A stretch of 36,984 bases of DNA from Nanobdellota archaeon (GCA_027623355.1 JAQBWB010000001.1:1-36984), one strand, 5' to 3'. Shown: positions 1-36,984, numbered from the stretch's first letter. Notes: generated by a model not told the origin, from the letters alone. A program made the numbers and translations.

Positions 1-67
1 GACCCCTCGCAACGCACCTGCTTGTGAAAGGTGAAAGAATTTCGACCTTAGGATGCTATGCACATAC
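1..67 (+). mobile_element. MITE-like element, copy A (3' 67 nt only, truncated by window start)
   Basis: Matches the last 67 nt of the full copies at 4159-4327, 18854-19021 and 31862-32029. Ends with the right terminal inverted repeat atgctatgcacatac. Carries the cttgtgaaagg variant shared with copy B. Confidence 0.85.
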
Positions 68-81
68 TTAGAAAGAAAATG

Positions 82-89
82 TTTATAAA
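82..89 (+). promoter_or_regulatory. TATA box (tttataaa) for a predicted leaderless transcript of ORF 113
   Basis: The octamer ends 23 nt before ATG 113 and there is no SD in between. The same 21-24 nt TATA-to-ATG spacing recurs at more than 12 genes in the window. Confidence 0.5.
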
Positions 90-4015: not shown

Positions 4016-4158
4016 TAGAGTTCCAGAGAATACTTATATTTTTTGTGACACTGAACCACCTGGGTGCGGTACAGGTTGCACCGATGAGTGTATGTCAGGT
4101 GGCAGTCAAGCTTGTTGTACGAAAATAAAACAATAGTTCTTAATTACTTTGTATTTTT

Positions 4159-4327
4159 GTATGTGTATAGCATAGTCACTAGCGTTCGTAGGCTGCTAAA
4201 GCAACCATCTTCGAAATTCCTGAGATTATTCCTTGAAGGTGCTGCGTCCCCGGGGGGGTCGACCCCTCGCAACGCACCTGCTTGTGAAAGGTGAAAGAAT
4301 TTCTACCTTAGGATGCTATGCACATAC
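4159..4327 (+). mobile_element. MITE-like element, copy B (full length, 169 nt)
   Basis: TIRs gtatgtgtatagcat / atgctatgcacatac, with one G-T position. Flanked by a perfect 8-bp direct duplication gtattttt (4151-4158 and 4328-4335). Lies between the convergent 3' ends of ORF 2870 and proS. Confidence 0.9.
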
Positions 4328-4359
4328 GTATTTTTTTGCTTTTTTATTTGGGGTGTTAT

Positions 4360-5796
4360 TCAATACCCTTTACCGAACAGAATGTTAGCAACTGCTTCTT
4401 TATTGCATTGAACGCACTTACCATTTACTAATTTCTTTGAGAATGGGATGTTTAATGACTTGGCGCCACCTGTTTTTTCTTTTATGGATTCTTCGCAGGC
4501 TTTTTCGCCACAGGATAGGGCTAGAGCTAGTTTTTTGTCATCGATTGCTTTCTTTAGTCCTTTGAAGTCTTTTACCTCTACCGTATTGTCTTCTAAGGTC
4601 TTCTTAGACTGTTTAAGGAGGTTCTTTTGGATTGCTTCTAGGGTTTTGTTTACATATTCTTTGAGGTCTTTGATTTTGACGGTTTCTTTGTTTCTTGTAT
4701 CTCTTCTGGATACTACTACCTCATCATTATCTAGGTCACGTGGACCTAATTCTATCCTTATAGGAACGCCTTTTAGTTCATACTCATTGAACTTCCAGCC
4801 GGGAGAGTATTCTTCTCGATCGTCTAGTTTTGCATCTCCTAGAGACTTTTGAATTTCTTTTGCTTTCTTTAGGACTTTTGCTTTTGAATCTTTGAAGATG
4901 ATTGGGATGATTACTGTTTGAATAGGTGCTAGTGAGGGAGGTAATACTAGGCCATAGTCATCGCCGTGGACCATGATTAAGACACCAATCATACGAGTGG
5001 TGATAGCCCATGTGTTCTGCCAGGCGTATTCGATCTTTTCTTCTTTACTTAGGAACTTGATATCGAAGGCTTTCGCGAAGTTTTGTCCGTCGTGATGTGC
5101 ATCGGGGCCTTGAATCGCTTTTCCATTAGGTAGGAAATATTCAATTGATAAGGTGTAGAGTGCGCCTGCAAACTTTTCGTGGTCTGTCTTTCTGCCGGGA
5201 ACTCCTTGTAAGGCAAAGAGTTCTTTTGAGACTTCCTCCCACATTTGAAGCCGTTCGTTACATTCTTTCTCGGCTTCTTCTTGTGTTGCGAATGCGGTGT
5301 GGCCTTCACACCAGAGGAATTCTCTTGTTCTTAGGAAGGGTACGGGATGTTTAAACTCCCATCTGACTACGTTGTTCCACTGATTGTAGAGGATAGGTAG
5401 ATCGCGATGAGATCTTACCCATTTTGAATAGGATTCATACATGATGGTTTCTGAGGTGGGTCTAATTGCTAATCTTTCATCTAGTTTGGAATCTCCTGCG
5501 TGTGTTACCCAGGCTACCTCAGGAGAGAATCCTTCTACGTGTGCTGCTTCCTTTTGCAGAAGTTTTTCTGGTATCAATAGGGGGAAGTAGACGTTTTGAA
5601 TTCCGTCTGCTTTGAGTCTTTTATCTACCTCTGATTGAATTTTTTCCCAGATAGCATAGGAATAGGGTTTGAAGATGATACAGCCAGAAACATCTGAATA
5701 GTCTGCTAAATCAGCTTTTTGGATTACTTCAGTATACCAGACGGACATGTCTTCGTGTTTCTTTACTGATAGTCCTGCTGATTGTTTCTTTCCCAT
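4360..5796 (-). CDS. proS: Prolyl-tRNA synthetase (archaeal/eukaryote type)
   Basis: Class II aaRS motifs (RPTSET, FLRTREFLWCEGHTA, GLVLPP) and a C-terminal domain ending in ...FGKGY. 478 aa. Confidence 0.95.
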   Translation of the reverse strand: MGKKQSAGLSVKKHEDMSVWYTEVIQKADLADYSDVSGCIIFKPYSYAIWEKIQSEVDKRLKADGIQNVYFPLLIPEKLLQKEAAHVEGFSPEVAWVTHAGDSKLDERLAIRPTSETIMYESYSKWVRSHRDLPILYNQWNNVVRWEFKHPVPFLRTREFLWCEGHTAFATQEEAEKECNERLQMWEEVSKELFALQGVPGRKTDHEKFAGALYTLSIEYFLPNGKAIQGPDAHHDGQNFAKAFDIKFLSKEEKIEYAWQNTWAITTRMIGVLIMVHGDDYGLVLPPSLAPIQTVIIPIIFKDSKAKVLKKAKEIQKSLGDAKLDDREEYSPGWKFNEYELKGVPIRIELGPRDLDNDEVVVSRRDTRNKETVKIKDLKEYVNKTLEAIQKNLLKQSKKTLEDNTVEVKDFKGLKKAIDDKKLALALSCGEKACEESIKEKTGGAKSLNIPFSKKLVNGKCVQCNKEAVANILFGKGY

Positions 5797-7455: not shown

Positions 7456-9398
7456 GTAAACCACTTGAGATGAGCAAGGTTACGCTTTTTGCTCTGCAGA
7501 AAGAGAGGAGTTCTTTATTAAGCGAGATTCAGTCCTTAGGAGTATTGCAACCGGTTGAGATTAAGCGCGATGCAGTCGAGGAATTAGAGAAACCTAAACA
7601 GATTACCTCGATAAAGGAGGTTGCCGATACATTGATTGGTGTCTCTCGAATGGTTCGTATTTTGAAGTTGGCTCCTAGAAAAACTGACATGGTTCAAAAT
7701 GTTTTGGGCTTAGAATTATTAGACAAAAGAAAGGTTGAGAGGAAAAATGATGCTGAAGTTATCAAAGGTGCTCAAACATTTTTAGAGGCCCATGAAACTT
7801 CATTAATTACGCTTGAGATCGAATATACTACTCTTGTTGAGGAGGAAGATGAGTTGAATACTCATAAACAAGTTATTGAACAGCTTTCTGCTTTAGGCGT
7901 TCCGTTATCTGAACTTGCGGATACGGACAAACTGGGCATTCTTATTGCTCGAGTTCCCGTTGAACAGGCTGCAGTTCTTAGGACTGCCTTGGAATCGAAA
8001 AAGACGGTTGCATTTGAGATGAATGCACTTTCTAAAAAGGAATATATAGTTACCCTTATTTCTTTACAGCGATTATTACTTGATTCCACTACTTTATTGA
8101 AACAGCAGGGGGCTTCAATTCTTAGCTTACCTACATGGGCTTTAAAGGAGCATCCCGGTAGGTACATTAAGTCTCAATTGACCGAGGTTAGCGATAAGAA
8201 AAAGGCAGTTATTGAAAGAATCGCTAAACATGCTAAGTCGCTATTCGAGGATGCCGTTATTTTTAGAGAGGAGTTGGAGATTGTTAAGAATAGATTGGAA
8301 ACGGTGCATAAGATGCTTGATTCTTCTAGCTTTTTTGTGATGCAGGGATGGATTGCTACTAAAGACGCAAATCATTTTGAGGAGAAGATAACGAAAAAGA
8401 TTGATGCGGTTAGTGTGCTTGTGGAGGAACCTTCTAAGGATGATGTTGTGCCAGTAGCATTACAAAACAGGAAATCTTTGAAACCGTTTGAGATGCTTAC
8501 AGAACTTTATGCATTGCCAAAATATGGTGATTTAGATCCTACTTTTATTGTTGGTCCTTTATTCTTGATTTTTGCAGCATTCATGTTGACGGATGCAGTG
8601 TATGGATTAGGACTCGTATTACTTGGAGCCATTATTCTAAAGAAATTTGCAAAATATGATGAAGGATTGAAGCAGATTGGTATTATTATTGCTGGAATGG
8701 GTAGTTTGACTGTTTTATTCGGGGTATTAACCGGATCGTACTTTGGTGATTTACCTAAGTATTTCTTTGGTGTATCGTCTGAACAGCTTGCATTTTGGAA
8801 AGATCCTCTTGCTGATCCGTTGTATTTTCTGATTTTATCTATTTCGGTTGCGATCCTTTACTTGAACATTGGTTTCGTTCTTGGTATGATGGAGGATTTG
8901 CGCAAGAAGGATTACAAAACGATGGTTAAGGACAGAATATTATGGTTTTTGTTGCAAATTGGTATTGCTTTGCTTGTTTTGAAGTTTAATCCTCCTCTTT
9001 TATTTGGTGTGGGTTTAGCTACCTTGATTATTGCTGCTGCGGTGATTGGAATAGTTGTGATGCATGGTCCGCTTGGTTTACTAGGAATCTCTGGATTAAT
9101 GGGCGATATGATATCGTTTTCTAGATTATTTGCGTTGTCGTTATCAACAGCAGGCATTGCACTTGCGGTTAACTTGCTTGCTAACTTAGTAAGTGAGGTT
9201 CCTTATGTGGGTTTATTACTAGCCGTACTTATCTTTTTGATTGGTCACGCATTTGGTTTTGTTATGAACTCTATTGGAAGTTTTGTACACGCGTTACGAT
9301 TGCAATTTGTTGAATTTTTCGGTAGATTTTATGAGGGTGGCGGAGATAAATTTTCGCCACTAAAAGAGGAACGCTTCTATTCGGAGGTCGAGGAATGA
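7452..9398 (+). CDS. atpI: A-type ATP synthase subunit I (stator a-subunit homolog)
   Basis: 648 aa with a soluble N-terminal half and a polytopic C-terminal half that includes the conserved Arg region (FSRLFALSLS). ATGA overlap with atpH. Confidence 0.9.
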   Translation: MSKPLEMSKVTLFALQKERSSLLSEIQSLGVLQPVEIKRDAVEELEKPKQITSIKEVADTLIGVSRMVRILKLAPRKTDMVQNVLGLELLDKRKVERKNDAEVIKGAQTFLEAHETSLITLEIEYTTLVEEEDELNTHKQVIEQLSALGVPLSELADTDKLGILIARVPVEQAAVLRTALESKKTVAFEMNALSKKEYIVTLISLQRLLLDSTTLLKQQGASILSLPTWALKEHPGRYIKSQLTEVSDKKKAVIERIAKHAKSLFEDAVIFREELEIVKNRLETVHKMLDSSSFFVMQGWIATKDANHFEEKITKKIDAVSVLVEEPSKDDVVPVALQNRKSLKPFEMLTELYALPKYGDLDPTFIVGPLFLIFAAFMLTDAVYGLGLVLLGAIILKKFAKYDEGLKQIGIIIAGMGSLTVLFGVLTGSYFGDLPKYFFGVSSEQLAFWKDPLADPLYFLILSISVAILYLNIGFVLGMMEDLRKKDYKTMVKDRILWFLLQIGIALLVLKFNPPLLFGVGLATLIIAAAVIGIVVMHGPLGLLGISGLMGDMISFSRLFALSLSTAGIALAVNLLANLVSEVPYVGLLLAVLIFLIGHAFGFVMNSIGSFVHALRLQFVEFFGRFYEGGGDKFSPLKEERFYSEVEE

Positions 9399-12300
9399 TT
9401 TTCGGTAGTGGACTTGTTGTTAGTGAAAGTATCGTTCAATCGATCTTAAGTCCGGTTTTGGATATTTCTACTACTGTTTCTACTGGAGGGGTTGCTAATG
9501 CAACTGCTACTGTACTTACTAATGCTTCGGCAGTACTTGTTGAACATAGCTCTACGTTTTTGGGTCTTGATTTTTCTGGTATTGATGGAAAATCACTTGC
9601 GATTATTGGTGCTGCTATTGCTGTTAGTGCCGCTGGTATTGCATCTGCGGTTGGAGCTGGGATTGTGGGTGCTACTGGAGCTAAGGAGGCCGCTGAGGAT
9701 CCTAAGCGCTTTTCTACTGCTTTATTGTTTCAGGCATTGCCTCAGACACAAGGTATTTATGGATTTTTGATTGCTATTCTTATTTTATTGGGTGCTGGAT
9801 TGATTGGTGCTGCTAAGGAGATTACGATTGCACAGGGACTTGGTTCGGTTGGAGCTGGATTGGCTGTTGGAATCGCTTCTGTTTCTGCTATTGGGCAGGG
9901 TCTCGCTGCATCAGCTGGTATCGGTGCTACCTCTCGTGATAAAAAGATGTTTGGTAAATCTATTCTGTTTTCAGTCTTGCCGGAGACACAGGCATTGTAT
10001 GGATTTTTGATTGCTATTTTGATACTCGTTGGCTTTGGTATGTTTGGTTCGGCTCCCGTTGACATTTCTATTGGTGCTGGTTGGGCTGCTATAGGTGCAG
10101 GTCTTGCTATTGGGATTGCAGGTATTTCTGCTATTGGGCAGGGTACTGCTGCTGCATCTGCTATTGGTGCTGTTTTAGAAAAATCAAAATCTTTTGGAAA
10201 GGCTATTATTTTTGCAGTATTACCTGAGACACAGGCATTGTATGGATTCATTATCGCTATTCTTATTTTAATTGGATTTGGTATTCTTGGTGCTGGAACA
10301 ACAACTGTTTCGTTTGGAGTTGCCTTATTTGCTATTGGTGCAGGTTTATCGGTTGGACTAGGTGCTGTTTCTGCTATTGGGCAGGGTATTGCTGCTAGTG
10401 CTGGTATTGAAGCTGTTGCTAAGAGTGATAAGTCGTTTGGAAAGGCTATTTTGTTTTCAGTCTTACCGGAAACACAGGCATTGTATGGTTTTTTGATTGC
10501 TATTTTGTTGTTAGTTGGCGCTGGCGTATTAGGTGCCGCTAAGGCAGGTATTACTACAGCTATGGGGGTTGTTGCTATTGGTGCTGGCCTTGCTGCAGGA
10601 GTTGCTGGTATTTCTGCTATTGGGCAGGGAATTGCTGCTGCATCTGGAATTTCTGTTGTTACTGCGAAACCTAAATTGTTTGGAAAAGCTATACTTTTTT
10701 CAGTCTTGCCGGAGACACAGGCATTGTATGGATTTTTGATTGCTATTCTTTTACTTGTTGGAGGCGGTATTTTGGGTGCTGCAAAAGCAGGATTATCTAT
10801 TCACGTTGGTTTAATTGCTATTGGTGCTGGTTTGGCAACTGGACTTGCTGCTGTATCTGCATTAGGTCAGGGGATTGCTGCTAGCGCGGGTATCGAAGCT
10901 GTTGGTCGAGATGAGAAGTCTTTTGGTAAGTCGATTTTATTTTCGGTTCTTCCTGAGACACAGGCATTGTATGGATTTTTGATTGCTATTTTATTATTAG
11001 TTGGAGGCGGTTTATTAGGGGCTGTTAAGACAGGATTGAACATGTCTGTTGGCTTGATTGCTATTGGTTCTGGATTGGCAACTGGACTTGCTGCTGTATC
11101 TGCATTAGGTCAGGGGATTGCTGCTGCATCTGGATTGCGTGAAACTGCTAAGGATCCTAAGGCTTTTGGTAAGTCGATTTTGTTTTCAGTCTTGCCGGAG
11201 ACACAGGCATTGTATGGATTTTTGATTGCTATTTTATTATTAGTTGGTGGAGGTATCCTTGGAGGTAACTCTTCAAGTGGTTTAACCTCTGGAGTTGGTC
11301 TTGTTGGAATTGGAGCAGGTATTGCTGTTGGTTTAGCTGCAGTTTCAGCTATCGGACAGGGTATTGCTGCTGCAAGTGGTGTTAGTGCTACTGCTAAAGA
11401 TGGTAAGATGTTTGGAAAATCTATTTTGTTTTCAGTCTTGCCTGAAACTCAGGCATTGTATGGATTTTTGATTGCTGTTTTATTTATGATTGGAGGAGGA
11501 TTATTTGGTGCTGTAGAGGTTGGCATTACCACTCCGGTTGGACTTATTGTTATTGGAGCTAGCTTAGCTGTTGGGATTGCAGGTATTTCTGCTATTGGAC
11601 AGGGTATTGCTGCGGCTTCTGGAATTGATGCTGTTGCTAAAAATGAGAAGTCGTTTGGAAAGGCTATTTTGTTTTCAGTCTTGCCGGAAACACAGGCATT
11701 GTATGGATTCTTAGTTGCTATTCTTTTATTAGTTGGAGGAGGATTATTAGGAGCAGTTAAACAGGGCATTAGCTTATCTGTTGGATTGGTTGCGATTGGG
11801 GCTGGTTTATCGGCTGGACTTGCTGCTGTATCTGCATTAGGACAGGGTTTCGCTGCTTCGGCTGGATTAGCAGCTACTGCACGTAATCCTAAATCTTTTG
11901 GTAAGTCGATACTCTTTTCAGTTCTTCCTGAAACTCAGGCTTTGTATGGATTTTTGATTGCTATTTTATTATTAGTTGGTGGCGGTATCTTAGGTGCAAC
12001 AAGCACTGGATTGTCTGTAGGTATTGGTTTAGTTGCGGTTGGAGCTGGATTAGCAGTTGGATTGAGTGCGTTCTCTGCTGTTGGGCAGGGGATTGTTGCT
12101 AGTACTGCTGCGGATGTTGTTAGTAACAACGAGAAGTCTTTTGGTAAGTCGATTCTATTTTCAGTACTGCCTGAAACACAGGCATTGTATGGATTTTTGA
12201 TTGCTATTTTGTTGATTGCATCAGGTGGATTGATTGGTGCTGCAGCTGGCGAGATTCCGATGTCTATTGGTTTAGTTGCGGTTGGAGCAGGACTTTCTGT

Positions 12301-12724
12301 TGGAATTGCCGGCTTATCGGCTGTTGGACAGGGAATTGCTGCTGCTTCTGGTGTCGGATCGATTGCTGAAAAAGAGAATGTCTTTGGTAAATCTATTTTG
12401 TTTTCAGTCTTGCCGGAGACACAGGCATTGTATGGAATTATTATTGCGGTGTTATTATTAACTGGAGTCGGTTTACTAGGTACTTTGAAGACCGGCATTA
12501 CACTAGTACAGGGATTAGGGGGAGTTGGTGTAGGACTTACCATGGGACTTGCAGCAGTTAGTGCTGTGGGTCAGGGAATAGTGTCTGCTTCATCGATTGG
12601 TGGGGTGGTTAGAGACAATAAGAGTACGGGGAAGAGCTTGGTATTAAGCGTTATTCCCGAGACGTATGCAATATTTGGATTATTGATAGCAATACTTTTG
12701 CTTATTGGATTACAACTGATATAG
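9395..12724 (+). CDS. atpK: A-type ATP synthase proteolipid subunit K, 13 fused hairpins (26 predicted TM helices)
   Basis: The motif GQG...FGK(S/A)ILFSVLPETQALYGF repeats at an 81-aa period. Helix-2 carboxylates are E197, 278, 359, 440, 521, 602, 684, 765, 846, 927, 1008 and 1089. Hairpin 1 has Q117 instead. ATGA overlap with atpI. Confidence 0.9.
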   Translation: MIFGSGLVVSESIVQSILSPVLDISTTVSTGGVANATATVLTNASAVLVEHSSTFLGLDFSGIDGKSLAIIGAAIAVSAAGIASAVGAGIVGATGAKEAAEDPKRFSTALLFQALPQTQGIYGFLIAILILLGAGLIGAAKEITIAQGLGSVGAGLAVGIASVSAIGQGLAASAGIGATSRDKKMFGKSILFSVLPETQALYGFLIAILILVGFGMFGSAPVDISIGAGWAAIGAGLAIGIAGISAIGQGTAAASAIGAVLEKSKSFGKAIIFAVLPETQALYGFIIAILILIGFGILGAGTTTVSFGVALFAIGAGLSVGLGAVSAIGQGIAASAGIEAVAKSDKSFGKAILFSVLPETQALYGFLIAILLLVGAGVLGAAKAGITTAMGVVAIGAGLAAGVAGISAIGQGIAAASGISVVTAKPKLFGKAILFSVLPETQALYGFLIAILLLVGGGILGAAKAGLSIHVGLIAIGAGLATGLAAVSALGQGIAASAGIEAVGRDEKSFGKSILFSVLPETQALYGFLIAILLLVGGGLLGAVKTGLNMSVGLIAIGSGLATGLAAVSALGQGIAAASGLRETAKDPKAFGKSILFSVLPETQALYGFLIAILLLVGGGILGGNSSSGLTSGVGLVGIGAGIAVGLAAVSAIGQGIAAASGVSATAKDGKMFGKSILFSVLPETQALYGFLIAVLFMIGGGLFGAVEVGITTPVGLIVIGASLAVGIAGISAIGQGIAAASGIDAVAKNEKSFGKAILFSVLPETQALYGFLVAILLLVGGGLLGAVKQGISLSVGLVAIGAGLSAGLAAVSALGQGFAASAGLAATARNPKSFGKSILFSVLPETQALYGFLIAILLLVGGGILGATSTGLSVGIGLVAVGAGLAVGLSAFSAVGQGIVASTAADVVSNNEKSFGKSILFSVLPETQALYGFLIAILLIASGGLIGAAAGEIPMSIGLVAVGAGLSVGIAGLSAVGQGIAAASGVGSIAEKENVFGKSILFSVLPETQALYGIIIAVLLLTGVGLLGTLKTGITLVQGLGGVGVGLTMGLAAVSAVGQGIVSASSIGGVVRDNKSTGKSLVLSVIPETYAIFGLLIAILLLIGLQLI
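9587..12721 (+). repeat. 13 in-frame tandem units of about 243 nt, one proteolipid hairpin each
   Basis: Regular 80-82 codon spacing of the PET motif. Several units share identical stretches of 40 nt or more, such as ttttcagtcttgccggagacacaggcattgtatggatttttgattgctatt. Confidence 0.9.
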
Positions 12725-13288
12725 GTGATGACAATGAACGGCGCTGAAAACATAAAAAAAGAAATGCTTGAAGAAGCACAACAGGAAGTTGAAAAGATAC
12801 AAAAAGAGGTAGCCGAGAAAATCGATGTCTTGAAGAAAGAACATGGATCTATTAGAGATGCCTATGAAACGCAACGCAAGCATGAGATTGCTCGAGCTGC
12901 TGCATTATTAACCGATAAAACCTTGGCTCGAACTAGGTTACAGGTTAAGAGAAATTACCTGATTGAACGAGAAAAGGTTGTTGAAAGCATTGTTAAGAGT
13001 GCTAGTAAGGTAAGCCATAGCGATAAGGTGTATCAGAACTACCTCAAGGCGCTTGTTAATGAACATGTTGGAAGTTTGAAGGGTAAGATTACTATTCATT
13101 GTAATAGTAAGGATGTTTCATATGTTAGTGGTCTTGTTGACGGGATTGCGGTTGAAGAAGCGGACATTGATGGAGGTATCATTGTTGAAAATGATGCTGG
13201 TAAAAAGATTAATGAATCTTTCTTGGAGTCAATTGAGAGAAGAATGGATATGGTTCGAGAGGTTGTTGTTAAGCACTTAGGAAAATGA
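12725..13288 (+). CDS. atpE: A-type ATP synthase subunit E
   Basis: Charged coiled-coil N-terminus and globular C-terminus, about 185 aa, in the operon position after K. The start is ambiguous: GTG 12725, ATG 12728 or ATG 12734. Confidence 0.85.
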   Translation: MMTMNGAENIKKEMLEEAQQEVEKIQKEVAEKIDVLKKEHGSIRDAYETQRKHEIARAAALLTDKTLARTRLQVKRNYLIEREKVVESIVKSASKVSHSDKVYQNYLKALVNEHVGSLKGKITIHCNSKDVSYVSGLVDGIAVEEADIDGGIIVENDAGKKINESFLESIERRMDMVREVVVKHLGK

Positions 13289-14319
13289 TTGATGTTACCG
13301 TACCTTTAGTTGTTGGCGGCGCTGCGGTAGCTGGGCTTGTAGTCATCGCGCCGATAACGAAGTATGCATTGGATATGTATCCTTACTTGTATGCTAACAC
13401 GCGTTGTGCTAGTCGTGCTGGGTTGTTGTTAACGAAGAAGCACTACGATGATTTATTGGGTGCTGGTTCGATTGAGGAAGTCTATGGTGGACTGGAAGAT
13501 AGTTCATATGCATCAATAGTCGAACATCATAAAGACTTTTTTTCATTTTCACGTGGCTTGGAGCAGGATTATGTTGAAACCTTATCCTGGATTCAGGAGA
13601 TTAGTCCTAACACGGTTAAGGGTGTTGTATCGGCATTGCAGAAACGCTCTGAAATTAATACGTTAAAGGAAATTATGGGTAATTTGAAGAATAAGAAGGA
13701 GTTGCCTTCTTTGGTTGGTATTGCTGATGCTACACTTCGGGTAAGGATTGAGGGAATCAAGGATATGCAGGGCTTTCAGGTAGCTTTAGAAGGAAGTGTG
13801 TATGGTGAGTTGCTTGCGAGTATTGATTTAGAGAGAATGGCCGAGATTAATACGTCATTAGATCGTTTCTATCTAGAGCAGTTGCAGGATGCTATCTCTA
13901 GTGTAAAAGATAGTGATGTCAAAAGTGCGTTTCTTACCTATGTTACCGTTCTTATTGATTTATTTAATGTTCGCCTTGCGTTAAGGAGTAGTGGGCAGGT
14001 GAGCTATTTGGAAGGTGGGGTGCTCGATTCTGAGGCTTTGGCTTCTGCCGCAGATAATACTCAACTTGAATCGGTGTTTAGTGCTAGTGTGTATGGTGAA
14101 GGGATGAGTGGGTTTTCTCTTACAAAGCTAGAGCAGGCTTTTATTTCTTACCTTCAAAAACAGGCGGAGATTATTGGAGTTAAATATAATCTGAAGGCTG
14201 GGATGTTGTTACGTTATTTAATTCACAAAGAAATTGAGATTAGAAATGTGAATGCGTTGGTTAAATTAAAATCTGAGGGATTTGATGCTGAAGAAATCAG
14301 ATCGTATGTGGTGGTTTAG
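13285..14319 (+). CDS. atpC: A-type ATP synthase subunit C (V-type d homolog)
   Basis: 344-aa helical protein in the operon position between E and F. ATGA overlap with atpE. Confidence 0.85.
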   Translation: MIDVTVPLVVGGAAVAGLVVIAPITKYALDMYPYLYANTRCASRAGLLLTKKHYDDLLGAGSIEEVYGGLEDSSYASIVEHHKDFFSFSRGLEQDYVETLSWIQEISPNTVKGVVSALQKRSEINTLKEIMGNLKNKKELPSLVGIADATLRVRIEGIKDMQGFQVALEGSVYGELLASIDLERMAEINTSLDRFYLEQLQDAISSVKDSDVKSAFLTYVTVLIDLFNVRLALRSSGQVSYLEGGVLDSEALASAADNTQLESVFSASVYGEGMSGFSLTKLEQAFISYLQKQAEIIGVKYNLKAGMLLRYLIHKEIEIRNVNALVKLKSEGFDAEEIRSYVVV

Positions 14320-14450
14320 ATGGAAATATCACTCAATGGGCATCTTCGAAATCCAGATTGTCTATTTGAAGGCTCTGTGGCCCGGATGGCACAACCCCTA
14401 CGACGAGCTGGCAGTCATTCATTGAAGGATTTCGACTTTAGGATGCTTGA
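14320..14450 (+). repeat. MITE-related structured intercistronic element, copy F (no TIRs)
   Basis: Shares catcttcgaaat..., cccgga.gg....acccc and atttcgac.ttaggatgct blocks with the MITE core. Helices 14346-14354/14427-14435, 14371-14375/14405-14409 and 14376-14379/14399-14402 are maintained. It also forms a 51-codon ORF, 14320-14475. Confidence 0.7.
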
Positions 14451-14465
14451 TTGGGAGATGATATC

Positions 14466-14759
14466 ATGGAAATAGGAATACTCGCGGATCAGGATACCTT
14501 GATGGGCTTTAGGGTAGCGGGAGTTACGCGAAGTGTGTTGTTTGATCTTGAAACGTTGAAGGAGGATTTGAAACAGCTGGATGATGTTGCTATTTTATTG
14601 GTTACTGAAAAAATAGGAATAGAAATTAGAAAATTAGATGTTACGATTTCACCTGTATTAGTTGGTGTACCTGATAAAGGTGGAAGTACAGGGAATGCGT
14701 TATTAGAGATTGCTAAACTTTACGAAGAGGCAATCGGTGTAAAACTCAAGGAAAAATAG
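14466..14759 (+). CDS. atpF: A-type ATP synthase subunit F
   Basis: MEIGILADQDTLMGFRVAGV is a typical F-subunit N-terminus. ATG 14466 is preferred over TTG 14451. Confidence 0.85.
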   Translation: MEIGILADQDTLMGFRVAGVTRSVLFDLETLKEDLKQLDDVAILLVTEKIGIEIRKLDVTISPVLVGVPDKGGSTGNALLEIAKLYEEAIGVKLKEK

Positions 14760-17911: not shown

Positions 17912-18030
17912 ATATGAACGAGCGTCTTCGAAATCTGGAGGGTTTTCTTCAAAGCCCTGTGACCCGGATGGTGCAACCCCCACGACGGGCTAGCATACAT
18001 TCTTTGCAGGATTTCGAACTCAGGACGCTT
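17912..18030 (+). repeat. MITE-related structured intercistronic element, copy G (no TIRs)
   Basis: cgtcttcgaaatc...agccc tgtg acccggatggtgcaacccc cacg ac gggct...ggatttcgaactcaggacgct. The helix layout matches copy F and the MITE core. It also forms a 45-codon ORF, 17908-18045, whose ATG overlaps the atpB stop. Confidence 0.7.
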
Positions 18031-18051
18031 GAGGTGAAGAGGTAAATAATA

Positions 18052-18830: not shown

Positions 18831-18853
18831 TTCCTTTTTGACTCAAATTAGGC

Positions 18854-19021
18854 GTATGTGCATAGCATAGTCACTAGCGTTCGTAGGCTGCTAAAGCAAC
18901 CATCTTCGAAATTCTCGAAACTATCCATCGAAGGTGCTGCGTCCCCGGAGGGGGCTACCCCTCGCAACGCACCTGCTTTTGAAGGTGAAAGAATTTCGAC
19001 CTTAGGATGCTATGCACATAC
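18854..19021 (+). mobile_element. MITE-like element, copy C (full length, 168 nt)
   Basis: Perfect 15-bp TIRs gtatgtgcatagcat / atgctatgcacatac. Perfect 8-bp TSD aattaggc at 18846-18853 and 19022-19029. Confidence 0.9.
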
Positions 19022-19035
19022 AATTAGGCGTAAAC

Positions 19036-19043
19036 TATATATA
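19036..19043 (+). promoter_or_regulatory. TATA box (tatatata) 22 nt upstream of micro-ORF ATG 19066
   Basis: Shows the same TATA-to-ATG spacing as the housekeeping genes. It starts 14 nt after the end of MITE copy C. Confidence 0.4.
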
Positions 19044-19065
19044 GGAGTTTAGTTTCAATAGCTTT

Positions 19066-19131
19066 ATGAGTAACATTATTATTAAGATTAAGACACTTTC
19101 TACTAGATGTATGACCATGCATTGCTGGTAA
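19066..19131 (+). CDS. Candidate leaderless micro-ORF (21 aa, MSNIIIKIKTLSTRCMTMHCW)
   Basis: The ATG sits at the predicted leaderless TSS position. The only support is promoter geometry. Confidence 0.25.
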   Translation: MSNIIIKIKTLSTRCMTMHCW

Positions 19132-19182
19132 CGGCACCGCATTATCCATTCTCATATAAAAAATTAACACGAGGTGAGCGCT

Positions 19183-19281
19183 ATGAACATACAATATGAA
19201 AACAAAAAAATACGATCGGTAAATGACGAATTTTTCTTTTTTGACGTCAACGACCGAGCTGAATCATTTAAAGATAAATGA
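19183..19281 (+). CDS. Candidate micro-ORF (32 aa, MNIQYENKKIRSVNDEFFFFDVNDRAESFKDK)
   Basis: GAGGTGA lies exactly 5 nt upstream of the ATG. The C-terminal half weakly resembles the micro-ORF at 31738-31815. Confidence 0.35.
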   Translation: MNIQYENKKIRSVNDEFFFFDVNDRAESFKDK

Positions 19282-19291
19282 GGTGAAGTAA

Positions 19292-19387
19292 ATGAATAAA
19301 CTGAATACGGACAAAATGAAGATGAATATTATGAATGAAATGCATACTTATCATTGTACTAGATGTTTTACTCTTACTTCTTTTTAG
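19292..19387 (+). CDS. Candidate micro-ORF (31 aa, Met-rich, with an HCTRC motif)
   Basis: GAGGTGA lies exactly 5 nt upstream of the ATG, 10 nt after the preceding micro-ORF. Confidence 0.3.
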   Translation: MNKLNTDKMKMNIMNEMHTYHCTRCFTLTSF

Positions 19388-19504
19388 TTCATTTGTTATA
19401 GAGTTATCTCTCATTTCTTTGCATAAAGATTTAAATACTCTCTCTCTGGATTAAGTATTGTGTTTAAAAAGAAAAAAGTTGATAAGAAGTTGGCTTCTGG
19501 TAAA

Positions 19505-19538
19505 AAAATTCCGAATTATCTTTCCCATTCGGAATTTT
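19505..19538. terminator. Bidirectional terminator-like hairpin (12-bp stem) flanked by A7 and T4 runs
   Basis: aaaattccgaat (19505-19516) pairs with attcggaatttt (19527-19538) around a 10-nt loop. A second hairpin follows at 19541-19551/19582-19592 (actcaaaagtc / gacttttgagt). Confidence 0.4.
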
Positions 19539-19613
19539 AGACTCAAAAGTCTCTCTGAAGAGCGGGGCTTTTAACCCAAGCGACTTTTGAGTAAGAAAAA
19601 AACGTTAACTGCA

Positions 19614-19811
19614 ATGCCCGTTATTAGCTGGATCTTAGGCGTTTTTTTGGGATTGATAGGATTTATTTTCTTATTCTCTGAATTTTTTTTGGGGTTCTTT
19701 TTTGTAGTGTGGGCGGGGATGTTATTGCCGCCCATTAAGAGAAGATTTGCAGCCAAATTCAATTTTCAATTATCTAGCGGTTTGCAGGGCTTAAGTACTC
19801 CTTCCTATTGA
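19614..19811 (+). CDS. Possible small two-TM membrane protein (65 aa)
   Basis: Hydrophobic ORF MPVISWILGVFLGLIGFIFLF...FFFVVWAGMLL. No clear TATA or SD. It overlaps the 3' end of the convergent gene by 7 nt. Confidence 0.3.
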   Translation: MPVISWILGVFLGLIGFIFLFSEFFLGFFFVVWAGMLLPPIKRRFAAKFNFQLSSGLQGLSTPSY

Positions 19812-23040: not shown

Positions 23041-26100
<3,060 letters not shown>

Positions 26101-31033: not shown

Positions 31034-31353
31034 TATAATTATTCCATATCTATATAATATTTAATGTTATTATAAAGTTGAATATATCTCACACCCGTAT
31101 ATATATGATATATATGGTATATGGCATGGTATTATATAAATATTTGCCTTATGTTATCTTATGTCTCGTTGGACATTGGGGGATGGGAAAACGAAAGTAC
31201 GGCCATTTCATTGAAATTTGTTTGAACATCTCCTCAACGAGACAGTTTTATTGAAAATCTTGTAAGAGATTTTCAATCTCTCAGACTCGAGGCGAGTACC
31301 TTTACTCCACGTCGGGAATGCCATCGTTCTGAGATATTTAGGAGGTGAAGGAA

Positions 31354-31527
31354 ATGGAAATGGGAAAACCACTAATGGATCATCTTCCGGGAGGGGATGC
31401 ACTTTATTTGGATGTGCCGGAGGTTGCTATTTATTGTGGAGGATGCATGGCTGAAATGAAAGTACACCATGATTTGAATTTCGGCTGCCCGATTTGTGGG
31501 AGGATCTATGATTCGCTTTTGGTATAG
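31354..31527 (+). CDS. Small zinc-ribbon protein (57 aa)
   Basis: AGGAGGTGA lies 5 nt upstream of ATG 31354. Two CxxC pairs are present (CGGC...CPIC). Confidence 0.55.
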   Translation: MEMGKPLMDHLPGGDALYLDVPEVAIYCGGCMAEMKVHHDLNFGCPICGRIYDSLLV

Positions 31528-31623
31528 TATATATACTGGACTTTTGAACTTGCGCAGAAGTTTTGGGGGTTGTGAGTTACAACTTAATAGTTGGTTGTCG
31601 GATGTAGAGATGAGGTGATTTAC

Positions 31624-31716
31624 ATGATTGTTTGTAGAGGTATGATGTGTGTGGACTTGGAGAAGATGGGCATTATGGACGATGAGTTTGTTGATAACGG
31701 CGAAATGGGTGCTTAA
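31624..31716 (+). CDS. Candidate micro-ORF (30 aa, Met/Cys-containing)
   Basis: GAGGTGA lies exactly 5 nt upstream of the ATG. Sequence MIVCRGMMCVDLEKMGIMDDEFVDNGEMGA. Confidence 0.3.
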   Translation: MIVCRGMMCVDLEKMGIMDDEFVDNGEMGA

Positions 31717-31737
31717 ATGAAAAATGAGGTGGATGAA

Positions 31738-31815
31738 ATGGAACCTAAATATTGGAGAGAGATGTTTTTTAATTTTACGCTCAATACTGCTTGCGAGGAC
31801 TTGCAGGATAAGTGA
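31738..31815 (+). CDS. Candidate micro-ORF (25 aa, or 32 aa from ATG 31717)
   Basis: GAGGTGG lies exactly 5 nt upstream of ATG 31738. MEPKYWREMFFNFTLNTACEDLQDK weakly resembles the C-terminal half of the micro-ORF at 19183-19281. Confidence 0.3.
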   Translation: MEPKYWREMFFNFTLNTACEDLQDK

Positions 31816-31861
31816 GCTGGTGGAATAGAGTAGGGGGATGATGCTATGTACAACATAAAAA

Positions 31862-32029
31862 GTATGTGCATAGCATAGTCACTAGCGTTCGTAGGCTGCT
31901 AAAGCAACCATCTTCGAAATTCTCGAAACTATCCATCGAAGGTGCTGTGTCTCCGGAGGGGGCGACCCCTCGCAACGCACCTGCTTCGGAAGGTGAAAGA
32001 ATTTCGACCTTAGGATGCTATGCACATAC
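31862..32029 (+). mobile_element. MITE-like element, copy D (full length, 168 nt)
   Basis: Perfect 15-bp TIRs. The flanking 8-mers cataaaaa (31854-31861) and tataaaaa (32030-32037) match at 7 of 8 positions. It belongs to the same subfamily as copy C. Confidence 0.9.
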
Positions 32030-32045
32030 TATAAAAACAAACATA

Positions 32046-32053
32046 TTTAAATA
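32046..32053 (+). promoter_or_regulatory. TATA box (tttaaata) for leaderless pyrB
   Basis: Lies 23 nt upstream of ATG 32077 and starts 16 nt after the end of MITE copy D. Confidence 0.5.
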
Positions 32054-32076
32054 TCAGTCAGATAACATTATTTTTG

Positions 32077-33003
32077 ATGGTTAAAGGATCCTTCAAAGGG
32101 CGTGATGTTCTCTCAATTAGTGATTTTTCTCGTGAAGATTTGTTACACATTTTATCTGTAGCTGGGCAACTTGAGAAAAAGCCAAGACCTGATTTGTTGA
32201 AAGGTAAAATTATGGCTTCCTTGTTCTTTGAACCTAGCACTCGTACTAAACTTAGCTTTGCAGCATCTATGATTAAGCTCGGTGGCCAGGTTATTGGTTT
32301 CGCTGATGTGAGAACTACTTCGGTTAAGAAGGGTGAAACGTTATGGGACACTACAAAAATGGTGGAGGCGTATAGTGATGTCATTGTTACGCGTAATGAT
32401 GTAGAGGGGGCTCCTCGTCTGATGTCGGAGGCTTCTAGCATCCCTGTGGTGAATGCAGGTGACGGGGCTAATCAGCATCCTACGCAGACGTTACTTGATT
32501 TGTATACGATTCAAAAGGAACATGGGTCGTTTGACGGCATGACCATTGGTTTTGTTGGAGATCTTAAATATGGGCGGACGGTGCATAGTTTGGCTGTCGC
32601 ACTGAGTCATTTTAAATGTAGTATGCACTTTGTTGCTCCTGCTGCGTTGAAGATGCCTGATTCTTACATTACGATGCTTAAGGAGAAGGGCATAACGGTT
32701 GAAGAAACTGATGATTTGGATGCAGCGTGCAAGCATTTTGATGTGCTGTATATGACTCGTATCCAGGAGGAGCGTTTTCCCGACCCAATAGAGTATCAAA
32801 AGTATAAGTCGGTGTATAAGATTGATAAGCGAGTACTTGAGTTGTGCAAGGAATCGGTAAAAATCATGCATCCGTTGCCACGAGTAGGCGAGATTGATCC
32901 GAAGATTGATGAAACTCCTAATGCAATCTACTTTAAGCAGGCTGCTAACGGCATACCTGTTCGTCAGGCGATCTTAGCGTTGGTGTTGGGTGAGTTGGAA
33001 TGA
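32077..33003 (+). CDS. pyrB: Aspartate carbamoyltransferase catalytic chain
   Basis: FFEPSTRTKLSF, HPTQTLLD and MHPLPRV motifs. ATG 32077 is preferred over TTG 32074 on promoter spacing. Confidence 0.95.
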   Translation: MVKGSFKGRDVLSISDFSREDLLHILSVAGQLEKKPRPDLLKGKIMASLFFEPSTRTKLSFAASMIKLGGQVIGFADVRTTSVKKGETLWDTTKMVEAYSDVIVTRNDVEGAPRLMSEASSIPVVNAGDGANQHPTQTLLDLYTIQKEHGSFDGMTIGFVGDLKYGRTVHSLAVALSHFKCSMHFVAPAALKMPDSYITMLKEKGITVEETDDLDAACKHFDVLYMTRIQEERFPDPIEYQKYKSVYKIDKRVLELCKESVKIMHPLPRVGEIDPKIDETPNAIYFKQAANGIPVRQAILALVLGELE

Positions 33004-35809: not shown

Positions 35810-36871
35810 TTACTTCTTTTTCACAGGATCTAGATGTACGTCTACCTGCGGGAAGGGGATTTTTATTTTGTTTTTATTCAATGTATCGTAAATTTTGCAA
35901 TTGAGATCTTCTTTTGTTGAGAATCTGTCCTTATAGGATGTTATCCATACGTAGGCTTTGAAATTTAGGGATGACTCTGCCATTTCTAGGAACATGACTT
36001 TGGGTTCGTTTTCTTTGTCTAGGTTTTTTAGTTTGCTTATTTTTTCTAGTACTATCTTCTTTATTTTATTGATGTTGTTTCCGTAGGCAACTGAAAACGG
36101 GATGATGATTCTTGCTTTTGGGTTTGGTAGAACATAATTAAGGATGACTTCGTTTGCTAGCTCTCCATTGGGGATGATTTTTACTTCGTTGTCCCATGTT
36201 CTTATTCTTGTGGCTCGTAAGCCTATGTCTATTACTTCTCCGTAGGTATCGGTTCCAATTTTGATTACGTCTCCTACACGCACGCTTCGATCTGCAATGA
36301 TGGAGATTCCTCCGAAGATGTTTCCAAGTGTTTTTTGTAGTCCGAAGGCGATTGCTACTCCTAGGACTCCTATGGATGCTAATAATGGACCTACTTCGAC
36401 GCCCCAGATTTGTAGGATGAACATGCCTGCTACAATAATTGTGATGAAGCGACTTGCTTTGTGGCCTAGACTGAGGATTTGATCGTCTGCTTTAGAATCG
36501 GTTGCTGCCGTTAATCTTTTGCCCCAGTGTTCGATAACAAGGTCTAGAAAAATTACGATGATGAAGGAGGTGATGATTACGGTAATTGAGGAGAATGTTT
36601 TTTGTAGCCCGGAGGTTATTGCTGGAGCAAGTTTTAGTGGTAGAATTGCTAGTTTTGTTCCGAAGAAAAGGATGAGAAGTGCTACTGGGACTTCTGACTG
36701 CTTGATTAACTTATCATCAAACGTGGTTTTTGTTTTTGCTGCTAATTTTGAAAGATACTTTGTGAAGATTTTGTATGCAATTTTTGCTATAACGAAAAAG
36801 ATGACTAATGTGGCTAGAGCTACAAGATATTTATTTGAAAGAATACTTTGTGCTACTGCGTTTAGAGGCAT
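35810..36871 (-). CDS. Small-conductance mechanosensitive channel (MscS family)
   Basis: The N-terminal region is hydrophobic. The pore helix plus beta domain follow (GVAIAFGLQKTLGNIFGGISIIADRSVRVGDVIKIG...GEVIDIGLRATRIRTWDN). 353 aa. Confidence 0.9.
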   Translation of the reverse strand: MPLNAVAQSILSNKYLVALATLVIFFVIAKIAYKIFTKYLSKLAAKTKTTFDDKLIKQSEVPVALLILFFGTKLAILPLKLAPAITSGLQKTFSSITVIITSFIIVIFLDLVIEHWGKRLTAATDSKADDQILSLGHKASRFITIIVAGMFILQIWGVEVGPLLASIGVLGVAIAFGLQKTLGNIFGGISIIADRSVRVGDVIKIGTDTYGEVIDIGLRATRIRTWDNEVKIIPNGELANEVILNYVLPNPKARIIIPFSVAYGNNINKIKKIVLEKISKLKNLDKENEPKVMFLEMAESSLNFKAYVWITSYKDRFSTKEDLNCKIYDTLNKNKIKIPFPQVDVHLDPVKKK

Positions 36872-36893
36872 ACCTTCTTTGGATGACTGTTTG

Positions 36894-36901
36894 TTTAAAA
36901 A
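36894..36901 (-). promoter_or_regulatory. TATA box (tttttaaa on the - strand) for the leaderless MscS gene
   Basis: Lies 22 nt upstream of ATG 36871. It ends 14 nt from the left end of MITE copy E. Confidence 0.5.
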
Positions 36902-36915
36902 TGTTCCTAAGAAGT

Positions 36916-36984
36916 GTATGTGAATAGCATAGTCACTAGCGTTCGTAGGCTGCTAAAGCAACCATCTTCGAAATTCCTGAGATT
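36916..36984 (+). mobile_element. MITE-like element, copy E (5' 69 nt only, truncated by window end)
   Basis: gtatgtgaatagcatagtcactagcgttcgtaggctgctaaagcaaccatcttcgaaattcctgagatt matches the left part of copy B, including the cctgagatt subfamily signature. Confidence 0.85.

Follow-up and report, generated by a model that had tools for sequence, protein, structure and literature searches.

Probable promoter-targeted integration of an archaeal MITE at a fixed distance upstream of the TATA box

Introduction

Integration directed to promoters at a fixed distance is known from a few bacterial Mutator-like elements and from eukaryotic retrotransposons. The retrotransposons Ty3 of yeast and TRE5-A of Dictyostelium target Pol III promoters, and for them protein tethering has been established experimentally. 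The bacterial representatives, the TnGBS ICEs and the ISLre2 family (p-MULT 3) and the ISKra4 group (p-MULT 4), are Mutator-like DDE transposons (Brochet 2009; Guerillot 2014, PMC3942029). They insert 15 to 17 bp upstream of the −35 box of sigma-A promoters and generate direct repeats of 8 to 9 bp, and those promoter-targeting elements that have symmetric inverted repeats (IRs) insert in both orientations (PMC3942029). The criteria for p-MULT elements (ISLre2, ISKra4, ISH6, and IS256) are direct repeats of 8 to 9 bp and IRs of 18 to 39 bp with a terminal C (PMC3942029); a further criterion is a transposase with a DDE triad and C/D(2)H signature between the same IRs. By analogy with Ty3, the authors of that study proposed an interaction with the initiation complex; their only remark on archaea is that ISH6 duplicates an A/T-rich target. 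Our search of the full-text literature for TATA-phased integration in archaea found no report.

Here, we analyze a MITE in a 36,984-nucleotide stretch of DNA from a Nanobdellota archaeon (GCA_027623355.1 JAQBWB010000001.1:1-36984; referred to below, at its full length, as the window). Its 8-bp TSD, G...C ends, and imperfect IR of ~30 bp fit the p-MULT description, although these features are not specific to one family. An earlier note on the window had remarked that MITE ends lie at a nearly constant distance from TATA boxes and had offered two explanations, targeting by the transposase or selection for a function of the inserted copies. We extended the comparison to copies outside the window.

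Materials and methods

The window belongs to a Caspian Sea metagenome (SAMN03444961 / SRR2027830). More contigs of the same genome were reached through pyrB, through a spurious ORF of the MITE, one frame of which returned two new contigs as a query, and through an exact 32-mer scan of GTDB genomes, which returned one contig (L001). Proteins adjoining copies A, B, and C were also looked up; they led to same-sample contigs only, all of which end in MITEs, and yielded neither a left flank for copy A nor empty sites. An exact 23-mer scan of JGI metagenomes gave no match. These metagenomes were also searched with the terminus pair as a pattern (two TIRs with 126 to 156 nt between), which gave six loci representing five distinct elements (M7, at L007 and L009; M8, at L008; M10, at L010; M11; and M12). 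All five have the same termini as the window MITE and different interiors. The same pattern had no match in viral contigs. A relative from TARA Oceans (L013; PyrB 87% identical) carries a decayed copy, N, and relatives with 69 to 70% identical PyrB (L014, L015, and L016) carry no member of the MITE family. The material thus comprises 15 independent insertion sites from the window genome, three other metagenomes that have only the TIRs in common with it, and the TARA relative; it is a sample rather than a genome-wide census, and several loci were fetched through their MITEs.

Promoter boxes were scored with a PWM built from 17 MITE-free promoter boxes of the same genome, and a match was called at ≥4.3 bits at exactly 14 nt from the element. 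For comparison, MITE-free upstream regions of the window and of three other contigs of the same genome were aligned.

Results

The window has 40% G+C and contains an A-type ATPase operon and genes for ribosomal protein S3Ae, gyrase B with an intein, PyrB and PyrI, and an MscS channel. The closest relatives of its PyrB are labelled Woesearchaeota, and the host is a DPANN archaeon of the Woesearchaeota/Nanoarchaeota type. Positions 9395-12724 (+) encode a 1109-aa A-type ATPase proteolipid (c/K subunit) with 13 tandem ATP-synt_C hairpin domains in 243-nt repeats, which would be the whole c-ring in one polypeptide, an arrangement otherwise known from Methanopyrus kandleri. The gyrB/intein ORF (23041-26034) includes, at 25845-25964, about 6 to 8 copies of a coding 15-nt tandem repeat (TTGGTTCTTTAGATG); the L002 assembly differs at this repeat, where the alignment is interrupted and the ORF has 928 aa, against 997 aa in the window.

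The repeat under study is ~168 bp long (122 to 183 bp across the family) and occurs five times in the window (copies A to E). Its ends form a 15-bp perfect TIR (GTATGTGCATAGCAT / ATGCTATGCACATAC; 15/15 complementary), from which the inverted repeat runs on imperfectly to ~30 bp (IRL, ...CATCTTCGAAA; IRR, ...CATCCTAAGGTCGAAA). TSDs of 8 bp accompany nine copies (B, C, D, E, H, K, M8, M11, and M12), and their sequences are unrelated to one another (GTATTTTT at B, AATTAGGC at C, c/tATAAAAA at D, TAAGAAGT at E, ATGrAGTA at H, and GGGTATCA at K, for example). Coding capacity is confined to spurious ORFs of ≤72 aa, for which the two database matches were both other MITE copies. The repeat is a true MITE, that is, a non-autonomous DNA transposon. 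Its sequence forms a long hairpin when folded (−64 kcal/mol; z = −5.65), and an Rfam search with it returned no family at the gathering threshold and only noise at E ≤5. The copies are 92 to 99% identical to copy C, indicating recent activity, and the Caspian genome has at least 11 of them in ~75 kb. Since assembly was interrupted at the repeat, both window boundaries fall inside copies; every alternative same-sample contig that we fetched also terminates in a MITE copy.

The interior of the MITE contains a two-part helix with an invariant AC bulge, GGNGC-TGCG ... CGCA-AC-GCNCC (e.g., window 18934-18974), which is also found at L004:6721-6842, in L008, L010, L011, and L012, and at L013:15393-15517. 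Read by eye rather than by RNAalifold, it shows compensatory changes across subfamilies (GTGC:GCAC, GCGC:GCGC, GCCC:GGGC, GAGC:GCTC, and GCTC:GAGC), a pattern that suggests a selected DNA or RNA structure. RNAalifold on a MAFFT alignment gave the TIR stem only, because the interiors align too poorly. Copies of the MITE core without TIRs, ~80% identical to the J-type interior, sit in two spacers of the ATPase operon, one (14336-14452) between the genes at 13285-14319 and 14466-14759 and the other (17921-18033) between atpB and atpD. Both retain the subterminal repeat CATCTTCGAAATC...GGATTTCGA..AGGAtGC as well as the internal helix but lack the outer termini; no TATA box adjoins them, and a Shine-Dalgarno-like motif and an ATG come after. 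These cores may be old domesticated insertions, or they may be the source of the MITE core.

Four of the five window copies are placed alike with respect to a neighboring TATA box. Copy A (1..67, +; right part only, cut by the window start) is followed on the same strand (68..89) by ttagaaag in the TSD position (68-75), BRE-like aaaatg (76-81), and the octamer TTTATAAA (82-89), 23 nt past which lies the ATG (113) of a 221-aa ORF. Copy C, the reference copy (18854..19021, +; TSD AATTAGGC at 18846-18853 and 19022-19029), has aattaggc as the TSD on its right side and, in the flank beyond (19030..19131, +), BRE-like gtaaac (19030-19035), the TATA box TATATATA (19036-19043), and a 21-codon micro-ORF (ATG 19066, 22 nt past the octamer; end 19131). 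Copy D (31862..32029, +; TSD cATAAAAA at 31854-31861 and tATAAAAA at 32030-32037) adjoins the pyrB core promoter (32038..32079, +), which consists of BRE-like caaaca (32038-32043), the TATA box TATTTAAATA (32044-32053), and the ATG at 32077. Two octamers overlap in this box, TATTTAAA at 32044-32051 (14 nt from the element; PWM 5.8) and TTTAAATA at 32046-32053 (16 nt; PWM 9.7). Copy E (36916..36984, +; left part only, cut by the window end) faces the MscS core promoter on the minus strand (36869..36915), where the ATG (36871-36869), a 22-nt spacer, the TATA box TTTTTAAA (36901-36894), BRE-like ggaaca (36907-36902), and the TSD ACTTCTTA (acttctta; 36915-36908), which is TAAGAAGT on the plus strand, follow one another up to the element. 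The complete copy E, with TAAGAAGT on both sides, is at L002:14840-15007. Copy B (4159..4327, +; TSD GTATTTTT at 4151-4158 and 4328-4335) lies between convergent 3' ends, those of a small ORF ending at 4136 and of ProRS, whose stop codon has its low end at 4360.

All coordinates in the earlier note proved correct, as did its gaps of 14 nt at copies A, C, and E and 16 nt at copy D (14 nt as well when the overlapping TATTTAAA is taken) and its start codons at 113, 19066, 32077, and 36871, 22 to 23 nt past the octamers. For copy B it had named ttttattt (4342-4349) as a TATA-like box; the distance of 14 nt holds, but the octamer is a poor TATA (PWM −3.2). The division of the 14 nt into an 8-bp TSD plus 6 nt had gone unseen. 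Beside copies D and C are stretches of ~700 to 800 nt each (31034-31835 and 19132-19804) with small ORFs only. The first includes a small ORF (31717-31815) that is conserved in the TARA relative, and the second a degenerate TIR-like sequence (19179-19192, −); both may be graveyards of older insertions.

The other contigs of the window genome supplied the complete copy E, the new copies F, H, I, J, K, and L, and a truncated fragment, G, that abuts F. Together with the elements from other genomes, these copies repeat the arrangement seen in the window. In order of TSD, 6-nt spacer, and octamer, the sequences are atgaagta, gataga, and TATTTATA at site H, upstream of a 76-aa ORF; taaaaata, gaagca, and TTTAAAAG at site J, beside a cold-shock gene; gggtatca, gatacc, and TTTATAAA at site K, beside a DEAD helicase gene; and taataaca, caagga, and TTTATAAA at site L. 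Outside the window genome they are ttttttac, acaatc, and TTTTTAAA at M7, beside the gene for a RIO-type kinase downstream of S3Ae; acataaac, aagtta, and TTTATATA at M11; gttgttta, gcaaag, and TATATAAA at M12, beside a 70-aa ORF; and atccattc, caaagc, and TTTAAAAA at site N in L013, beside the gene for ribosomal protein L16/L10e. At site L (L001:2660-2731), the MITE end and a leaderless gene are separated by three TTTATAAA-like boxes in tandem, with gaps of 9 and 3 nt; the outermost is 14 nt from the MITE, and the gene has its own box nearer the ATG. Sites B and M10 have a weak all-A/T octamer at 14 nt and M8 has none; like B, M8 lies between convergent 3' ends. Beside M10, L010:1101-1210 carries short tandem repeats of ggtagaataataatata and then of taaactaggataataatata, with no ORF and no clear TATA box. 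The assemblies of copies F and I include just the flank that is not informative. At L002:18430-18488, copy F runs at its right end directly into the interior of a further MITE (a B/E-type copy, from ~position 44) with no matching TSD; the adjoining fragment represents either an older copy that was truncated or a chimeric join made during assembly.

Twelve of the 15 sites share the layout of MITE end, 8-bp TSD, 6-nt purine-rich BRE-like spacer, and TATA octamer, which places the octamer 14 nt from the element. In ten sites (A, C, E, H, J, K, L, M7, M11, and M12), the highest-scoring PWM match within 45 nt of the element end stood exactly 14 nt away, with a tie at site L, where an equal-scoring box stands at 31 nt; the box of site N, also at exactly 14 nt, was read directly from the sequence. 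Base counts over the 15 sites give G-A-A-A at positions 9 to 12 and T-T-T-A/T-T-A-A/T-A at positions 15 to 22, as expected for TATA plus BRE. The opposite flank never had a box at the 14-nt offset. Judging by the asymmetric subterminal sequences, it is the IRR end that points toward the box at A, C, D, H, J, K, and M11 and the IRL end at E, L, M12, and N; hence, both orientations are seen. The distance from the end of the upstream gene to the element varies from 0 to >40 nt while the distance to the TATA box is constant, and for this reason the upstream gene's end was rejected as the landmark. We likewise rejected the idea that the 14 nt belong to the element, since the flanks are unrelated and the boundaries are set by an empty site (see below).

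We compared this spacing with a null of random intergenic position and direction (p = 0.0117 per flank; p = 0.0033 over all positions). In the window genome, 8 of 18 flanks matched (P = 1.4 × 10−11). The replication set, made up of copies absent from the earlier note and scored at the prespecified offset, gave matches in 8 of 21 flanks (P = 6 × 10−11; P = 4 × 10−6 even at a generous p = 0.05). Chance is thus ruled out as the source of the spacing, on new copies as well. The wording of the earlier note, that every MITE end is near a TATA box, was too broad, although constant spacing was borne out: the box is on one side only, B and M10 have weak boxes, and M8 has none.

To judge whether the octamers are promoters, we relied on the norm of the genome. 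MITE-free genes have a TTTATAWA box ending 21 to 22 nt before the ATG, a leaderless promoter architecture. At 7 to 8 of the 14-nt sites (A, C, D, E, H, M7, M12, and N), the ATG is 22 to 25 nt past the octamer; J and K have leaders of ~85 to 110 nt with Shine-Dalgarno-like GGAGG or GGTGA. From this agreement in sequence, the octamers beside the MITEs are predicted to be promoters. In the 40 kb that can be regarded as unbiased (the window plus the L002 extension), 4 to 5 of ~18 recognizable promoters are occupied by a MITE.

The TARA relative preserves the empty site of copy E. Its spacer between MscS and L16 reads cat-22 nt-tataaaaa-ggtttc-TAAGAAGT-ta, in which a single TAAGAAGT lies 6 nt from the MscS TATA box and abuts the L16 stop codon. 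The promoter therefore predates the insertion, which added the element and 8 bp and nothing else. Upstream of pyrB, all that the same relative has of a MITE is a decayed right end (gagatttcgacttgatgatgctttattcatac), followed by tttgaaaa-caaaca-TATTTAAA. In the window, the orthologous remnant is the decayed right end ggatgatgctatgtacaa (31836..31853, +); the young, full copy D sits between this old remnant (31836-31853) and the BRE, and its TSD is the same 8-bp slot. The pyrB promoter has been hit twice at one position. Copy F is 34 nt from the TATA box of the OMP-decarboxylase gene; from the orthologous point in L013, it probably lay 8 + 6 nt from TTTATTAA, the box of a divergent Band_7 gene.

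Discussion

The 14-nt register of these MITEs is very probably explained by targeted integration at the upstream edge of BRE/TATA by a putative DDE transposase, and we infer that it is set at integration rather than by later selection. This is one of the two explanations raised in the earlier note, and it gains support from the recurrence of the register in independent copies and subfamilies, the empty site, the reuse of the pyrB site, and the roomy spacers. According to the proposed mechanism, the MITE would be mobilized in trans by a DDE-type transposase that picks an 8-bp target with its promoter-proximal edge 6 bp upstream of the TATA-like octamer. Such a target would coincide with the upstream limit of the BRE/TATA core promoter, the site occupied by TFB and TBP. 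A staggered cut would duplicate the 8 bp, with strand-transfer points ~6 and 14 bp upstream of the TATA box, so that new copies would end 14 bp from the TATA box and ~44 to 47 bp from a leaderless start codon. The core promoter and the neighboring gene would be left intact, so that in so compact a genome the site would serve as a safe haven. The 14-nt rule is kept by subfamily M7, which has an unrelated, A/T-rich interior, and by the elements of other genomes (L007, L011, L012, and L013). Neither an autonomous element nor a transposase bearing these TIRs turned up, and none of the fetched loci contains a full-length element with them; we therefore infer the class of the enzyme, DDE.

Other explanations must nevertheless account for the same spacing. 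A coincidence, in which loose TATA-like matches in A/T-rich intergenic DNA turn up near any element end, is hardly credible. It is true that octamers with at least 7 of 8 A/T are present at a given offset from 15.8% of intergenic positions and that the earlier note had chosen whichever end had a box. However, with a PWM from MITE-free promoters and one fixed offset, the null falls to 1.2% per flank, against 8/21 in unseen copies, and ten sites have their best match within 45 nt at exactly 14 nt. Random insertion with purifying selection, whose survivors would spare coding sequence and the interval from BRE/TATA to ATG and so pile up upstream of the BRE, deserves more attention, since in C, E, H, K, M7, and M12 the TSD lies only 0 to 15 nt from the upstream stop codon. 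Of the nine sites whose upstream boundary is known, five offer ≤8 viable positions, and B and M8, which are without a good TATA, survive between convergent 3' ends, another harmless location. Selection helps to shape the pattern, because many spacers are tiny and the boxless copies are in such harmless convergent regions. Nevertheless, purifying selection predicts a minimum distance, not one exact distance, and the sites with room to spare keep the exact 14 nt (D, ≥46 nt; J, 38 nt; N, ~300 nt; and L). Moreover, no copy other than F lies 15 to 40 nt upstream of a TATA box, and F itself is placed by synteny 14 nt from the box of the divergent gene; at the pyrB promoter, two insertions took the same 8 bp. 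If every viable position from the upstream stop codon to the BRE were equally open to insertion (C, 16; D, 39; E, 2; H, 8; J, 31; K, 6; M7, 2; M12, 6; and N, ~150), the joint probability that all nine sites use the final slot would be ~3 × 10−10. Selection alone cannot explain the 14-nt precision, and we regard random insertion followed by purifying selection as very unlikely.

We consider it very unlikely that the register arose by selection for function, with the terminus or hairpin kept as a regulator site, insulator, or terminator for the adjacent promoter, which was the second explanation in the earlier note. The same 15-bp terminus is present at both ends, so either orientation puts the same sequence 14 bp from the TATA box; the MITE fold is very stable, and the compensatory changes of the interior helix, together with the TIR-less cores in the ATPase operon, hint at a selected role. 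Yet functional selection would still need insertions at the exact base beside many genes that are unrelated to one another (pyrB, MscS, L16, the helicase gene, the cold-shock gene, and the micro-ORF). The copies are also young (92 to 99% identical), M7 has the same register with an unrelated interior, and B and M8 sit where no promoter is. Given these points and the occurrence of both orientations, selection as insulator or regulator fits poorly and is not needed to account for the spacing, though it is a possible contributor. Targeted integration is the reading that we carry forward.

How the putative transposase would recognize its target is a more tentative matter. We hypothesize that it might dock on the TBP/TFB-promoter complex or its bend, rather than on a DNA sequence, and integrate at the upstream edge; we see this as possible but somewhat doubtful. 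Both direct readout of A/T-rich or bendable DNA and docking on TBP/TFB would accommodate the extra box at L and the weak boxes at B and M10. Were docking true, the MITE would be an archaeal DNA-transposon counterpart of Ty3/TFIIIB targeting, and each insertion in uncultured DPANN archaea would naturally mark a promoter that had been occupied in vivo. With this system, it becomes tractable to test whether the TBP/TFB complex can be read by a transposase. Promoter targeting would also explain how a very compact DPANN genome carries about one copy per 7 kb without its genes being killed, and the MITE explains why such genomes assemble into fragments ending in the repeat. In practical terms, MITE junctions could serve as a free computational promoter marker in uncultured archaea, and the enzyme, once found, as a tool for promoter-proximal insertion.

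Among known transposon families, the IS6 family (DDE_Tnp_IS240) resembles the MITE in its 8-bp TSD. IS6 IRs typically start with GG, and we know of no promoter targeting in this family. An IS6-like transposase is encoded at L008:6546-7474 (−; Pfam DDE_Tnp_IS240, 4.8 × 10−9), with its stop codon 16 nt from M8 and a zinc-ribbon ORF upstream in an overlapping frame. No MITE-type TIRs flank it in L008, and its adjacency to M8 may be due to chance. The ISH6 family (p-MULT 2, mostly archaeal) shares with the MITE its archaeal hosts, an 8-bp TSD, and an A/T-rich preference that may bias it toward promoters (PMC3942029). The two differ when compared by target, the only basis used here: the ISH6 motif AANATNTT is itself the duplicated target, whereas the TSDs of the MITE have no consensus and the A/T box is 6 bp outside the TSD.

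The closest likeness in behavior is to the bacterial TnGBS, ISLre2, and ISKra4 elements. Both they and the MITE are found at a fixed short distance upstream of a promoter that lies on one side only (15 to 17 bp from the −35 box versus 14 bp from the TATA box), and they share repeats of 8 to 9 bp (8 bp in the MITE), IRs ending in C, insertion in both orientations, and a safe-haven logic. They differ in the promoter that is read, which is the sigma-A −35 box in the bacterial group and here, in an archaeal host, BRE/TATA read by TBP/TFB, with a leaderless ATG 22 to 25 nt on. The −35/−10 architecture of sigma-A promoters is absent at the MITE sites. The MITE thus appears to work like the TnGBS/ISLre2 group, a likeness in behavior that is known here from non-autonomous MITEs alone. 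Ty3 and TRE5-A also occupy a fixed position beside a TBP-containing complex (TFIIIB, made up of TBP and Brf1, a homologue of TFB/TFIIB) and likewise find a safe haven in compact genomes. In contrast to the MITE, a DNA element for which tethering is a hypothesis, they are eukaryotic retroelements that use an integrase or target-primed reverse transcription. The comparison points to the MITE as the first archaeal transposon aiming at promoters. If this is true, the safe-haven strategy of the bacterial Mutator-like elements and the eukaryotic retrotransposons arose in all three domains, and here it is keyed to the TATA/BRE of a eukaryote-like transcription system.
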